Positions 10,153-19,294 of a stretch of 64,000 nucleotides of DNA are shown piece after piece. Numbering within the stretch: position 1 is the stretch's first letter; each line of letters opens with the position of its first letter. The notes under the pieces were generated by a model. That model did no database searches and was not told the origin of the DNA. It saw only the letters and a program-made list of their open reading frames with translations. The position numbers were made by a program, and so were the translations under genes. Location: NCBI RefSeq assembly GCF_003334355.1, contig NZ_QOWP01000007.1. One strand, written 5' to 3'. This DNA is from Escherichia coli. Lineage in GTDB: Bacteria; Pseudomonadota; Gammaproteobacteria; Enterobacterales; Enterobacteriaceae.

Positions 10153-10290
10153 TAACATTTTTCCGCATCGCTACCTCGCCCCTCACTCTTTCCAATAATG
10201 TTGCACAAGATACTGTGACTCTCTTCAAGCCGTCAGCAGGCTGATAATGTTATTTATATTTTATTGTTTATTTCATGCAGCCATTACACG

Positions 10291-10647
10291 ATGAACGCTT
10301 ATGAACTCCAGGCACTCCGCCATATTTTTGCCATGACTATTGATGAATGCGCGACCTGGATTGCCCAGACCGGTGACAGTGAAAGCTGGCGTCAATGGGA
10401 AAATGGCAAGTGTGCCATTCCTGATTGTGTAGTCGAGCAACTGTTGGCTATGCGTCAGCAAAGAAAAAAACATCTTCATGCGATCATAGAGAAAATAAAT
10501 AACCGCATCGGCAACAACACCATGCGTTTTTTCCCCGACTTAACCGCGTTTCAACAAGTCTACCCTGATGGCAATTTTATTGACTGGAAGATCTATCAAT
10601 CGGTAGCCGCTGAATTATATGCACACGATCTGGAGCGGCTTTGTTAA
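10291..10647 (+). CDS. ydiL: Uncharacterized protein YdiL
   Basis: 118 aa from MNAYELQALRH... Confidence 0.8.
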   Translation: MNAYELQALRHIFAMTIDECATWIAQTGDSESWRQWENGKCAIPDCVVEQLLAMRQQRKKHLHAIIEKINNRIGNNTMRFFPDLTAFQQVYPDGNFIDWKIYQSVAAELYAHDLERLC

Positions 10648-10746: not shown

Positions 10747-11961
10747 ATGAAAAATCCCTATTACCCTACCGCACTTGGGTTGTATTTTAATTACCTGGTG
10801 CATGGTATGGGCGTCATTTTGATGAGCCTGAATATGGCCTCGCTGGAGACACTTTGGCAGACTAATGCCACGGGTGTCTCGATAGTTATCTCATCGCTGG
10901 GCATTGGTCGATTAAGTGTCTTGCTTTTTGCAGGATTATTATCCGATCGCTTTGGTCGCCGCCCTTTTATCATGCTCGGGATGTGCTGCTATATGGCCTT
11001 CTTTTTTGGCATCCTGCAGACCAATAACATCATTATCGCTTATGTTTTTGGCTTTCTGGCGGGAATGGCAAACAGTTTTCTCGATGCAGGCACTTATCCC
11101 AGTTTGATGGAAGCTTTTCCACGCTCACCTGGGACAGCCAATATTTTAATTAAAGCATTTGTTTCCAGCGGACAATTTTTATTACCGCTAATCATTAGCC
11201 TGTTAGTGTGGGCTGAACTGTGGTTCGGTTGGTCCTTTATGATTGCTGCAGGCATTATGTTTATTAACGCTCTGTTTTTATACCGTTGTACGTTCCCACC
11301 CCATCCGGGTCGTCGCTTACCTGTCATAAAGAAAACCACCAGCTCTACGGAACATCGCTGTTCAATTATCGATTTAGCCAGTTATACCTTATATGGCTAT
11401 ATCTCAATGGCAACGTTTTATCTGGTTAGCCAGTGGCTGGCACAGTACGGACAATTTGTTGCAGGCATGTCATACACTATGTCGATCAAACTACTCAGTA
11501 TCTACACCGTGGGTTCGCTGCTTTGTGTATTTATTACCGCTCCACTCATTCGTAATACCGTTCGCCCAACAACATTACTGATGCTGTACACCTTTATCTC
11601 ATTTATTGCTCTGTTTACCGTCTGCCTGCATCCCACATTTTATGTGGTGATAATATTTGCTTTTGTCATTGGTTTTACCTCTGCTGGAGGTGTTGTGCAA
11701 ATTGGCCTGACGTTAATGGCTGAACGTTTCCCTTACGCTAAAGGTAAAGCTACAGGGATCTATTACAGTGCGGGCAGTATTGCGACCTTTACTATTCCGT
11801 TGATTACGGCTCATCTGTCCCAAAGAAGTATTGCCGATATTATGTGGTTCGATACCGCCATCGCTGCCATCGGTTTTTTACTGGCACTGTTTATCGGCTT
11901 ACGCAGCCGCAAAAAAACGCGGCATCACTCGCTAAAGGAAAATGTCGCTCCGGGTGGGTAA
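10747..11961 (+). CDS. ydiM: MFS transporter YdiM
   Basis: 404-aa polytopic membrane ORF. Confidence 0.9.
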   Translation: MKNPYYPTALGLYFNYLVHGMGVILMSLNMASLETLWQTNATGVSIVISSLGIGRLSVLLFAGLLSDRFGRRPFIMLGMCCYMAFFFGILQTNNIIIAYVFGFLAGMANSFLDAGTYPSLMEAFPRSPGTANILIKAFVSSGQFLLPLIISLLVWAELWFGWSFMIAAGIMFINALFLYRCTFPPHPGRRLPVIKKTTSSTEHRCSIIDLASYTLYGYISMATFYLVSQWLAQYGQFVAGMSYTMSIKLLSIYTVGSLLCVFITAPLIRNTVRPTTLLMLYTFISFIALFTVCLHPTFYVVIIFAFVIGFTSAGGVVQIGLTLMAERFPYAKGKATGIYYSAGSIATFTIPLITAHLSQRSIADIMWFDTAIAAIGFLLALFIGLRSRKKTRHHSLKENVAPGG

Positions 11962-12187
11962 TGCAATATTCTTTTCAGGTCATGCAAGATCTTACGGATA
12001 AATAACTCTTTCTGCGCTAACTAAGGAAAATCGAGATCAAAAACAAACTATGACATGCAATATTCCTGGAAACATAAACTTTATGCCATGTACCCAGGGA
12101 AAATCATCTTCAGTATAGTAATTATGTAAACCGTCGGAGAACAATACGTACGGTAACGAAATTATCTTTCAGCAAGGAGCTGTGAAA

Positions 12188-13453
12188 ATGTCTCAAAATA
12201 AGGCTTTCAGCACGCCATTTATCCTGGCTGTTCTTTGTATTTACTTCAGCTACTTCCTGCACGGCATTAGTGTTATTACGCTTGCCCAAAATATGTCATC
12301 TCTGGCGGAAAAGTTTTCCACTGACAACGCGGGCATTGCCTACTTAATTTCCGGTATCGGTTTGGGGCGATTGATCAGTATTTTATTCTTCGGTGTGATC
12401 TCCGATAAGTTTGGTCGTCGGGCGGTGATATTAATGGCAGTAATAATGTATCTGCTATTCTTCTTTGGTATTCCCGCTTGCCCGAATTTAACTCTCGCCT
12501 ACGGTCTGGCAGTGTGCGTAGGTATCGCTAACTCAGCGCTGGATACGGGTGGCTACCCCGCGCTCATGGAATGCTTTCCGAAAGCCTCTGGTTCGGCGGT
12601 CATACTGGTTAAAGCGATGGTGTCATTTGGGCAAATGTTCTACCCAATGCTGGTGAGCTATATGTTGCTCAATAATATCTGGTACGGCTATGGGCTGATT
12701 ATTCCGGGTATTCTATTTGTACTGATCACGCTGATGCTGTTGAAAAGCAAATTCCCCAGCCAGTTGGTGGACGCCAGCGTAACTAATGAATTACCGCAAA
12801 TGAACAGCAAACCGTTAGTCTGGCTGGAAGGTGTTTCATCGGTACTGTTCGGTGTAGCCGCATTCTCGACCTTTTATGTGATTGTGGTGTGGATGCCCAA
12901 ATATGCGATGGCTTTTGCTGGTATGTCAGAAGCTGAGGCATTAAAAACCATCTCTTATTACAGTATGGGCTCGTTGGTCTGTGTCTTTATTTTTGCCGCA
13001 CTACTGAAAAAAATGGTCCGGCCCATCTGGGCTAATGTATTTAACTCTGCACTGGCAACAATAACAGCAGCCATTATCTACCTGTACCCTTCTCCACTGG
13101 TGTGTAATGCCGGCGCCTTTGTTATCGGTTTCTCAGCAGCTGGCGGCATTTTACAGCTCGGTGTTTCGGTCATGTCAGAGTTTTTCCCAAAAAGCAAAGC
13201 CAAAGTCACCAGTATTTATATGATGATGGGTGGACTGGCTAACTTTGTTATTCCGCTGATTACCGGTTATCTGTCGAACATCGGCCTGCAATATATCATT
13301 GTTCTCGATTTTACTTTCGCGCTGCTGGCCCTGATTACCGCAATTATTGTTTTTATCCGCTATTACCGCGTTTTTATTATTCCTGAGAATGATGTGCGGT
13401 TTGGCGAGCGCAAATTTAGCACCCGGTTAAACACAATTAAGCATAGAGGTTAA
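12188..13453 (+). CDS. ydiN: MFS transporter YdiN
   Basis: 421 aa from [11 protein letters not shown]...; paralogous to ydiM. Confidence 0.9.
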
Positions 13454-16873: not shown

Positions 16874-18025
16874 ATGGATTTTTCTTTAACTGAAGAACAA
16901 GAACTGCTGCTGGCCAGTATTCGCGAACTGATTACGACTAACTTTCCGGAAGAGTATTTCCGCACCTGCGATCAAAACGGGACATATCCGCGTGAGTTTA
17001 TGCGGGCGCTGGCGGATAACGGTATTTCCATGCTTGGCGTGCCGGAAGAATTTGGTGGTATCCCTGCGGATTACGTCACCCAAATGCTGGCGCTGATGGA
17101 AGTGTCAAAATGCGGTGCTCCGGCATTTTTAATTACCAACGGTCAATGTATTCACAGTATGCGCCGTTTCGGTTCTGCAGAGCAGCTACGTAAAACGGCA
17201 GAAAGCACCCTGGAAACCGGCGACCCCGCCTATGCCCTGGCGTTGACGGAACCAGGTGCTGGCTCAGATAACAACAGTGCCACCACCACTTACACGCGTA
17301 AAAACGGCAAGGTTTACATCAACGGACAGAAAACCTTTATTACCGGTGCGAAAGAGTACCCGTATATGCTGGTGTTGGCGCGCGATCCGCAACCGAAAGA
17401 TCCCAAAAAAGCCTTCACCCTGTGGTGGGTCGACTCCAGTAAGCCCGGCATTAAGATTAACCCGCTGCATAAAATCGGCTGACATATGCTCAGCACCTGC
17501 GAAGTCTATCTCGACAACGTGGAAGTTGAAGAGAGCGACATGGTGGGCGAAGAAGGAATGGGTTTCCTCAATGTGATGTACAACTTTGAGATGGAGCGCC
17601 TGATCAACGCCGCGCGCAGCACCGGCTTTGCCGAATGCGCCTTTGAAGATGCCGCCCGCTATGCCAACCAACGTATCGCTTTTGGTAAGCCCATTGGTCA
17701 TAACCAGATGATCCAGGAAAAACTGGCGCTGATGGCGATTAAGATTGACAACATGCGCAACATGGTGCTGAAAGTGGCATGGCAAGCCGATCAGCATCAG
17801 TCACTGCGCACCAGCGCGGCGCTGGCAAAACTGTATTGCGCACGTACCGCAATGGAAGTCATTGATGATGCGATTCAAATCATGGGCGGTCTGGGCTATA
17901 CCGATGAAGCGCGCGTCTCCCGCTTCTGGCGTGATGTCCGTTGTGAACGTATCGGCGGCGGTACAGACGAAATTATGATTTACGTAGCAGGTCGGCAGAT
18001 CCTGAAAGACTATCAGAACAAATAA
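16874..18025 (+). pseudogene. ydiO: Acyl-CoA dehydrogenase YdiO, interrupted by an in-frame TGA at 17483-17485 (codon 204 of 383)
   Basis: Two same-frame ORFs (to 17482; from 17486) that together give exactly 383 codons; acyl-CoA dehydrogenase motifs on both sides of the stop. Confidence 0.8.
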
Positions 18026-18067: not shown

Positions 18068-18979
18068 TTATCCAACAAGACTTACCGGTTGAGGAAATTC
18101 AGATAGGATTTCTTGTTCCGCAAAACAGTTTTTAAATTGCCTGCGGTAATCGCTGGGTGAACAGCCGACATGGCGCAAAAACAGTTTGCCAAAGTGATCG
18201 ACATTTTCATAACCCACACGCCAGGAGATCTCTGCCTGTGATAATTCAGTATTAGTGAGTAACCATTTCGCTTCCGTCATACGCCGTTGAATAACATAGT
18301 TAATTGGGGAAATACGATACTCTTTGGTAAATTCATGGCAAATATAACTGACGCTGGCACGAAATTTTTTCGATAACTGTTCTAAAGTGATTTTTTCGCG
18401 ATAATTATTATTCAGATAGAAAAGAATATCTTTTATCAGAACATCTTTTTTAATATACCCCTACTCCGAACGATAAGCATTTTTAAAGTTTTCGTAGTAA
18501 AGAATTGCTAATGTATAGGCAAATGCATCCCATAACGAAGATGTTTGGCTATTTTTACTTTGCGGCAAAATCACACTTAGCTCATTAAATAAGGTTTTAA
18601 TGACTTCTTTTCCCTGCCCCGCGGCAATTACCGGACAAGAATGCGGTTGCAGTAGATGATTTTCCTCAGCCCCCTGAAACTGAAAGCCGTACAGCGCACA
18701 GGTACACGTCGTTGCCGGATCGTTAACGTCAGAGGCCACCGCATGCAGCCTGCCGCGTTCTATCACCACTATATCATCTGCATGCGCGACATATAACGAA
18801 GAATCGATGGTAAACCTTGCCACCCCTTTCTTGACGTAAATCAGCTCGGTTTCATTGTCATGAACGTGATGTCCAGACTCCCATTTTGGATCATCGCTAA
18901 ATGCAAAACGTGAAAGCCGTGGCGTTTTACCAGCGACAAACAGCGTTTCACTGGCATTATCAAAACAGCGTTGATACAT
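18068..18979 (-). pseudogene. ydiP: AraC-family regulator YdiP, interrupted by an in-frame TAG at 18461-18463 (codon 173 of 303)
   Basis: N-terminal cupin part (172 aa) and C-terminal HTH part are in the same frame; hand translation of 18281-18460 is open and AraC-like, so a single stop is the only lesion. Confidence 0.75.
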
Positions 18980-19294
18980 GACAACCTCCCTATTCCATGA
19001 GCAAGCAAAAACAATATATGCCGGATAAAATACGGCGTGTATTGCGGTTATACAACCGCGTTTAGCGAGAGCTAAACAAGATTATTTACACTGAATGCAA
19101 GATTGTACGGTCATGGAATAACTATATTGCCGCAAATTGCACTTTTGTTTTAGCGATCGCATTTTTTTTGCAAGATTGTTGGCAAGGAAAACAGCTTGCT
19201 CCGTCGAAAACCCCGCACCGCTATCGCACACTATTTTCAGGCCATTTTTACCTTCCATCGGAGATGGTTCCGTATGCGACTCACAGGAGAAATC

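Follow-up and report, generated by a model that had tools for sequence, protein, structure and literature searches.

AraC-type promoters show direct-repeat half-sites with a period of 21 bp, a proximal pair adjoining the -35 element, an upstream pair in helical phase and a divergent gene encoding a regulator with a cupin domain and a double helix-turn-helix (HTH), and AraC binds DNA also without its inducer. At the Pm promoter of Pseudomonas putida, the XylS/BenR sites are TGCA-N6-GGNTA direct repeats, also with a 21-bp period, and we know of no distal pair there. CytR operators contain octamer half-sites (GTTGCATT / AATGCAAC) with flexible spacing and tandem CRP flanks, and the CytR regulon is that of nucleoside catabolism. 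The two LytTR regulators of E. coli have different published motifs. HTH dimers of the Aca2/Xre type normally bind inverted repeats and not 21-bp direct repeats, and FNR has the consensus TTGAT-N4-ATCAA. The ydi cluster of E. coli, whose ydiN, ydiB, ydiF, ydiO, ydiP and ydiQRST are long-standing orphan or half-annotated genes of the best-studied bacterium, contains conserved boxes upstream of both ydiN and ydiQ, with a layout common to the two promoters and helical phasing. In the literature searched, from which RegulonDB, EcoCyc and RegPrecise stood apart, no paper was found on ydiN and ydiQ together, on a YdiP motif or on the ydiN promoter; new here is a box sequence in what appears to be an AraC-like operator layout, which would tie two orphan operons together.

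The window is the whole stretch of 64,000 nt that was analysed; its flanking genes differ from K-12 at about 2% of positions, and it belongs to an E. coli strain other than K-12. It contains exactly two copies of the 11-mer ATGCAATATTC, both on the + strand and 94 bp apart. This match is exactly 11 bp and cannot be extended, since different bases flank the two copies on either side. The original prediction had found the repeat, but placed its copies at 11963-11973 and 12056-12066, which is 2 and 1 bp too high, and gave their spacing as about 93 bp. The copies are between ydiM (ORF at 10747-11961 in the ORF listing) and ydiN (ATG at 12188, transferred from the K-12 annotation). The features of this spacer are:

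11961 to 11971, + strand: copy 1 of the 11-mer ATGCAATATTC; the ydiM stop codon TAA ends on its first base.
11962 to 11973, + strand: ydiN distal box 1 (N_d1), TGCAATATTCTT, pattern TGCAA.ATT.TT; 10 of 12 positions are invariant in 17 species, and the box is also found in the quiR-bearing genera.
11983 to 11990, + strand: ydiN distal box 2 (N_d2), TGCAAGAT, 21 bp after N_d1; 7 of 8 positions are invariant.
12055 to 12065, + strand: copy 2 of the 11-mer.
12056 to 12092, + strand: ydiN proximal composite site (N_p) of 37 bp, TGCAATAT-tcc-TGGAAAC-a-TAAAC-ttt-AT-gcc-ATGTA.
12077 to 12084, + strand: invariant AAC...AT, a possible weaker half-site within N_p, 21 bp after its first half-site.
12113 to 12122, + strand: GTATAGTAAT block, conserved in the 17-species alignment, whose TATAGT (12114-12119) is the likely -10 of ydiN.
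12174 to 12190, + strand: Shine-Dalgarno sequence AAGGAG (12174-12179), conserved, and the ydiN ATG (12188-12190).

By itself, the 11-mer repeat is weak evidence of function, only suggestive. Any 11-mer direct repeat would arise in a 241-bp region of the same composition with P = 0.016 (Markov-1 simulations), and the window shows six 11-mer direct-repeat pairs no more than 150 bp apart, against 1.9 +/- 1.3 expected. Another of the six, TGCAAGATTGT at 19096 and 19169, bears the same core as ATGCAATATTC. The other four exact pairs are located at 38400/38418, 41356/41392, 50244/50286 and 62782/62848 (TTTACGCCAAC, ACGCGCATTCA, TACCCAAAGTG and CAGAATCGGTT, respectively). One-mismatch copies of the 11-mer at 36770, 44255 and 44287 were dropped, as they do not contain the TGCAA.AT core. 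A functionless chance match in AT-rich intergenic DNA would fit the 38% G+C of the spacer, the roughly two exact pairs within 150 bp that a 64-kb window is expected to hold and the lack of conservation of the last two bases of the 11-mer outside Escherichia. However, the core is kept at both positions in about 40 loci of about 12 genera despite diverged surroundings. This footprint contradicts the coincidence that the original prediction had allowed for, and makes a chance origin extremely unlikely. The ATGCAATATTC repeat is thus raised above chance because it is conserved and because the TGCAAGATTGT pair contains the same core.

The species-representative genomes scanned with YdiN gave 44 loci. 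The core alignment for the footprint contains 17 species of Escherichia, Citrobacter, Kosakonia and Intestinirhabdus, in which ydiM is directly upstream of ydiN; a footprint within E. coli is uninformative because the spacer is about 99% identical between strains. The Escherichia species, Citrobacter, Kosakonia and Intestinirhabdus show the 11-mer, or a variant with one or two mismatches, at both positions, and the Citrobacter counterparts are ATGCAATATTG and ATGCAATATAC. Only the 8-bp core TGCAA.AT of the 11-mer is conserved, the 3' 'TC' being specific to Escherichia, and this core is near-invariant at both 11-mer positions in 40 orthologous loci of about 12 genera. In the 17-species alignment, the three core boxes have 23 of 28 positions invariant and 94-96% identity, while the spacer outside them has 8 of 153 invariant columns and a mean identity of 61%. 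The third of these boxes, N_d2, is absent from the original prediction. The second 11-mer copy is the 5' end of the composite site N_p, whose core box (12056-12063, TGCAA.A(T)) has 6 of 8 positions invariant in the 17 species and whose extension has 12 of 29, with a mean identity of 0.88 and the pattern ..CCTGG..A...AA.C...AT...ATGTA. Yersinia, Brenneria, Serratia, Symbiopectobacterium, Prodigiosinella, Dickeya and Salmonella have all three boxes with order and strand unchanged, and the proximal block of the quiR-bearing genera, TGCAATAAA.TTGAAAAC.AAAAC...ATATTACGTAT, shows clear homology to E. coli 12056-12092. Overall, the 64-kb window shows no enrichment of the core (21 observed, 17 expected), and a cluster of three same-strand cores within 120 bp, as at ydiN, was obtained in 0 of 200 simulations of the window. 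The phylogenetic footprinting that the original prediction proposed thus gave boxes kept across orthologues, and the lack of conservation that it named as the contrary outcome did not occur. Its reading as sites for a regulator of ydiN-ydiB-aroD is supported by this conservation, with the amendment that there are three clear boxes and a weaker fourth instead of two.

Several other features of this spacer were recorded. Base 12034, between the boxes, is A in this strain and C in K-12 and six divergent E. coli, and the best match to the 351-bp spacer query does not exceed 99.7% among 5,324 genomes. Kosakonia oryziphila (L045) shows an insertion of about 150 bp between the -10 block and ydiN (alignment columns about 254-400), with terminal inverted repeats AGAGCCTATCCCA...TGGGATAGGCTCT, which resembles a miniature mobile element, and C. 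amalonaticus S646 (L012) shows a separate insertion of about 65 bp nearby in the ydiN spacer. Another TGCAATAT core is found inside ydiN at 13287-13294, with a similar 3'-end position in five other genera scanned. It most likely reflects coding constraint, because it encodes Leu-Gln-Tyr-Ile; an internal site ahead of ydiB is the other possible reading.

The divergent ydiP-ydiQ spacer, which holds the only other local core pair of the window (TGCAAGATTGT, 19096 / 19169), repeats the ydiN layout at 19075-19206, with two distal boxes at a 21-bp interval and a proximal composite site:

18068 to 18979, - strand: ydiP, AraC-family regulator gene with cupin/AraC_binding and HTH_18 domains; candidate binder of the boxes.
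19075 to 19086, + strand: ydiQ distal box 1 (Q_d1), AACAAGATTATT, pattern ..CAA.ATT.TT like N_d1; 11 of 12 positions are invariant in 6 genera.
19096 to 19106, + strand: ydiQ distal box 2 (Q_d2), TGCAAGATTGT, 21 bp after Q_d1; 8 of 8 core positions are invariant in 6 genera.
19169 to 19206, + strand: ydiQ proximal composite site (Q_p), TGCAAGAT-tgt-TGGCAAG-g-AAAAC-...-TCG, 73 bp after Q_d2.
19190 to 19197, + strand: possible weaker half-site AAC...AT within Q_p, 21 bp after TGCAA.AT.

Q_d1 reads AACAAGATT.TT, is exactly 21 bp 5' of the distal TGCAAGAT and has the ATT.TT tail in common with N_d1, and Q_d2 is 117 bp upstream of the ydiP start codon. In 6 genera, Q_p shows 8 of 8 invariant positions in the core and 16 of 30 in the extension. 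N_p and Q_p are homologous over about 38 bp (TGCAA.AT-N3-TGG.AAC-N-AAAAC-N3-T...). The comparison contigs, obtained by a search for YdiP homologs, belong to C. amalonaticus, Salmonella, Dickeya, Yersinia and Brenneria, and all five show the syntenic order ydiL-ydiM-[quiR]-ydiN-ydiB-aroD-ydiF-ydiO-ydiP<>ydiQRST-fadK. An nhmmer profile built exclusively from 20 non-Escherichia ydiN-proximal sites was run on both strands of about 168 kb from 6 genomes. In 6 of 6 genomes the best match is the ydiN site (12052-12094 in the window) and the next-best is the ydiQ-proximal site. For the latter, four genera give E-values between 1.1e-5 and 9.3e-5, Salmonella gives 2.4, and in the E. coli window, where the site ranks second, E is 0.16. 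The sole other match above the weakest ydiQ-proximal one is in the Brenneria ydiP-ydiQ spacer (E = 0.91). Given their conservation, the boxes of the ydiN and ydiQ spacers are very probably functional transcription factor sites, and the shared composite site argues that one factor probably acts at both promoters. Since the same boxes precede ydiQRST-fadK, the regulated unit would be larger than the shikimate/quinate module ydiN-ydiB-aroD named in the original prediction.

Two further features touch the ydiQ spacer. A terminator-like hairpin at 19060-19077 (+ strand), GTTTAGCGAGAGCTAAAC then AAGATTATTT, overlaps Q_d1; its stem, partly conserved elsewhere, covers 19075-19077 and its tail 19078-19086. 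Dickeya (L054) and Brenneria (L056) show about 200 extra common bases between the ydiQ-proximal box and ydiQ (alignment columns about 640-880), which contain CCGGAGAAAA.CATG, a Shine-Dalgarno sequence plus ATG, and may encode a small leader ORF.

The spacing of the boxes is also conserved. The period between distal boxes 1 and 2 at ydiN is 21 bp in nearly all of the 40 loci and 22 bp in Kosakonia, and N_d1-N_d2 and Q_d1-Q_d2 are same-strand repeats, as AraC-type half-sites are. Between N_d2 and the proximal site, Escherichia, Citrobacter and Intestinirhabdus have 73-74 bp, and E. albertii and Kosakonia have one helical turn more (84 bp), with no intermediates; measured from N_d1, the distance is 94-95 or 105-106 bp in Enterobacteriaceae. 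At the ydiN loci of Enterobacteriaceae the distal site is thus kept in helical phase with the proximal site. The 73-74 and 84-bp spacings occur in genera without the QuiR-like LysR gene, and in the quiR-bearing genera the distal pair is 264-391 bp upstream of the proximal site. At ydiQ, the corresponding distance from Q_d2 is 73 bp in E. coli and C. amalonaticus and 241-337 bp elsewhere. The long distal-to-proximal spacings of the other genera (241-396 bp) show no clear helical phase. The conserved islands could belong to a ydiM-ydiN read-through transcript and act at the RNA level, as a structured leader, riboswitch or sRNA target; the spacer may be part of a transcript, since no terminator was predicted between the two genes. 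Nevertheless, 11800-12300 has no Rfam match at E <= 1, and the islands are 73 to about 370 bp apart, with a divergent gene inserted between them in some genera; a folded RNA unit is incompatible with such variable spacing and with a whole intervening gene. As the same boxes are also present in the divergent ydiP-ydiQ promoter spacer, an RNA role is hardly credible.

With regard to the promoters, no consensus sigma-70 promoter was found on the + strand of the ydiN and ydiP-ydiQ spacers. The ydiN -35 position at about 12090-12096, set from the putative -10, is a poor match and would abut the end of N_p at 12092. Both features would fit activator-dependent ydiN and ydiQ promoters. The second proximal half-site, AAC...AT, is weak, with only 5 shared positions.

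Yersinia, Serratia, Brenneria, Dickeya, Symbiopectobacterium and Prodigiosinella carry a LysR gene between ydiM and ydiN, in divergent orientation. It encodes a QuiR-like protein of 299-300 aa (for example, L029 624-1526, - strand) and is found only in Yersiniaceae and Pectobacteriaceae-type genera (loci L026-L036, L041, L046 and L054-L056; Serratia is represented by S. marcescens). Its effector domain matches Listeria Lmo0488 (PDB 5TED) with E = 8.6e-66, and Lmo0488 is QuiR, crystallised with shikimate (10.1101/2025.04.08.647683). The distal box pair is 115-300 bp upstream of the LysR gene start, and the boxes could be sites of this shikimate-sensing activator, left in E. coli as relics or used by a LysR paralog. 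Against this reading, tblastn searches of the 64-kb window and of the Escherichia, Citrobacter and Kosakonia loci found no QuiR homolog, and blastn found no quiR match in 5,426 complete E. coli genomes, yet Escherichia, Citrobacter, Kosakonia and Salmonella keep the boxes invariant, which decaying relics would not be. The boxes are found ahead of ydiQ as well, a long way from quiR. As same-strand direct repeats, they do not show the T-N11-A dyad that typifies LysR sites, and three alignments revealed no conserved inverted partner. Finally, the Clostridiales loci with a QuiR homolog beside a ydiN homolog have no box cluster. QuiR would therefore not be the box binder, at least in the genera that lack it, since the boxes stay invariant there, and it is very unlikely to explain them; as the E. 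coli binder, the QuiR-like LysR was rejected because the gene is absent. Where quiR is absent, distal box 1 is near the ydiM stop codon (it abuts it in E. coli and is 17 bp after it in Salmonella). The quiR-ydiN spacers show the extra conserved blocks TTGTTAA and TTTTGTAAAATAAAAACA..TCATCAACA, which could be QuiR sites. In Clostridiales MAGs (L047 and L048), too, QuiR homologs are found beside ydiN-like genes.

The gene that best matches the layout is ydiP. YdiP shows the AraC domain layout (PF02311/PF07883 plus PF12833), is the only AraC-type protein encoded within the ydi cluster and has orthologs of 58-99% identity in every box-bearing lineage examined, on the same contigs as the boxes; ydiP is divergent from ydiQ in 6 of 6 genera examined. 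Box clusters are confined in the 64 kb to the two ydi promoters and the core is not enriched there, which argues for a local factor. In ChIP-exo with myc-tagged YdiP in glucose M9, a single uninduced condition, YdiP shows five weak peaks (sdhC, uxaB, secG, cspA and yihQ; S/N 1.7-5.5) and no peak in the ydi cluster, neither at ydiN nor at ydiQ (PMC8464067). Even a relaxed box was not found in these five peak regions. Another study connects YdiP with cold-shock genes (PMC9283627), and the supplement text of the YdiP ChIP-seq paper, in the part available, names no ydi-cluster genes. Because AraC does not need its inducer for binding, the missing peak counts somewhat against YdiP; as the cells were uninduced and the peaks are at highly expressed loci, these data weaken YdiP as a candidate and do not exclude it. 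The identification of the box-binding factor as YdiP, suggested by gene content and position, is therefore tentative, with chances a little below even. No boxes were found near the YdiP homologs of about 50% identity in rearranged clusters (L057 and L058), which is uninformative.

In the strain of the window, ydiP has an internal in-frame stop at 18461-18463 (- strand), codon 173 of 303, in comparison with K-12; if the factor is YdiP, the sites of this strain may have lost it because of this premature stop. Among the matches listed, this ydiP allele has a 100% match in one E. coli genome (FLI21), the others listed being at 99.7%. The ydiO gene also shows an in-frame stop relative to K-12, at 17480-17482 (+ strand), codon 203 of 383.

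Alternatively, the boxes may be functional sites of a regulator other than YdiP, either YdiL or an unlinked or global factor present Enterobacterales-wide. In addition to the YdiP ChIP-exo data, with no cluster peak and peaks without a box, this is favoured by the presence of ydiL in the same cluster in most genera and by an FNR ChIP-chip peak in the ydiP/ydiQ spacer (PMC1802558), so other factors act there. YdiL (window 10264-10647) belongs in Pfam to Aca2_YdiL (PF08965), an HTH family with known anti-CRISPR-associated repressors, and its gene stands first in the cluster in most genera. However, the restriction of box clusters to two ydi promoters does not suggest a global factor, the 21-bp direct repeats are not the inverted repeats of an Aca2-like protein, and Brenneria has intact boxes and a shikimate kinase gene beyond ydiM instead of ydiL. 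The FNR consensus is unrelated to the boxes, as is the site predicted at the FNR peak. A regulator other than YdiP is accordingly an unlikely, but by no means negligible, explanation. The motif comparison that the original prediction proposed, made by eye against consensus sequences, gave no fit among the E. coli motifs compared: Fur, NsrR, TyrR, CRP, MarA/SoxS/Rob, RcsAB, RcsB, OmpR, PurR, CytR, Lrp, ArgR, FadR and the sigma-54 -24/-12 elements fail at invariant positions or in spacing. The Brenneria kinase gene (SKI; L056 20825-20912), found where enterics have ydiL, is a further shikimate-pathway gene attached to the ydi cluster.

We lean, with modest confidence, towards the boxes as operator half-sites of one cluster-specific factor in an AraC-like arrangement, with YdiP as the most likely candidate. 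In this proposal, protein binding, the identity of the factor, activation or repression, the transcription start site and the inducer are read from sequence features. The factor would control ydiN-ydiB-aroD(-ydiF-ydiO) and ydiQRST-fadK through half-sites that are all on the sense strand. Each promoter would contain a proximal pair 21 bp apart, a strong TGCAA.AT and a weak AAC...AT, ending beside the poor -35; a dimer, proposed to be of YdiP, would bind this pair, recruit RNA polymerase and activate the operon. The upstream pair, also 21 bp apart and on the same helix face, may favour cooperative loading of the proximal site or, alternatively, may form a repression loop without inducer, as AraC does between araO2 and araI1. 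The inducer is possibly related to shikimate or quinate, as suggested by a strain that accumulates shikimate, in which ydiN, ydiB and aroD are co-induced when carbon is limiting (Johansson & Liden 2006, as cited in PMC4585142).

A broader proposal would make the 12-13 genes ydiM/ydiN-ydiB-aroD-ydiF-ydiO-ydiP-ydiQRST-fadK one YdiP regulon for a single unrecognised pathway. Imported quinate or shikimate would pass through YdiB and AroD and be converted to a CoA thioester by YdiF/FadK, and the CaiA-like YdiO would reduce the thioester, drawing electrons from the FixABCX-like YdiQRST. Such a route would serve as an anaerobic electron sink analogous to carnitine reduction, with the TGCAA.AT boxes as its inducible switch. 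Gut microbes convert quinate/shikimate to cyclohexanecarboxylate, and the pathway could be related to this conversion. The cis-elements and the synteny are observed; the chemistry is deduced from gene content and general knowledge, and the proposal as a whole is speculative and rather improbable. The operator set common to the shikimate/quinate and ETF/acyl-CoA modules would be the first cis-regulatory evidence for one regulon, and gives concrete targets in the 8-bp core and the 37-38-bp composite site. In industrial shikimate production, ydiB and ydiN cause by-product formation. The region also provides a candidate shikimate/quinate-responsive promoter for biosensors.

Compared with the known systems, the ydi boxes, with an 8-bp box plus 13 bp, fit the geometry of LytTR sites of the BtsR/YpdB type, which are 9-10-bp repeats with a 12-13-bp spacer, but no LytTR regulator gene was found in the ydi cluster. 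They share with CytR operators the TGCAA core, and copy 1 (AATGCAAT) matches 7 of 8 positions of the octamer; CytR also tolerates direct repeats. In contrast, the invariant 3' AT of the boxes is outside the CytR motif, the 5' AA and the 3' C of the octamer are not conserved at ydi (Citrobacter GATGCAAT, Yersinia TGTGCAAA), and the conserved tandem CRP sites (TGTGA-N6-TCACA) that flank CytR operators were not seen around the boxes in the alignments. QuiR (Lmo0488), of the Listeria qui operons, regulates quinate/shikimate dehydrogenase and dehydroquinase genes and has a close homolog beside ydiN-ydiB-aroD in Yersinia, Serratia and Dickeya, but E. coli, Salmonella, Citrobacter and Kosakonia keep the boxes without having it, and the boxes do not show LysR-type dyad symmetry. 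XylS/BenR at Pm, a comparison that serves as a lead, belongs like YdiP to the AraC/XylS family, regulates aromatic-acid metabolism and has repeats starting with TGCA, the proximal one beside the -35; its second sub-box differs in sequence and spacing from that of ydi (TGCA-N7-TGG.AAC), and YdiP is no close relative of XylS, as far as tested here.

AraC at araBAD (araI1-I2 and araO2) differs from ydi in its half-site, TAGC-N7-TCCATA against TGCAA.AT, in its distal element, which at ydi is a pair and not a single half-site, in the presence at ydi of two operons with one layout, and in the distal-to-proximal distance, 210 bp at ara and 73-94 bp in E. coli ydi. The likeness of the two systems is known from sequence, with binding, looping and inducer as candidate features of ydi. 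Both show 21-bp direct repeats, a proximal pair that abuts the -35, at ydi a putative one, with the weaker half-site nearest the promoter, an upstream auxiliary site in helical phase and a divergent gene of AraC layout, with a site near its own start.
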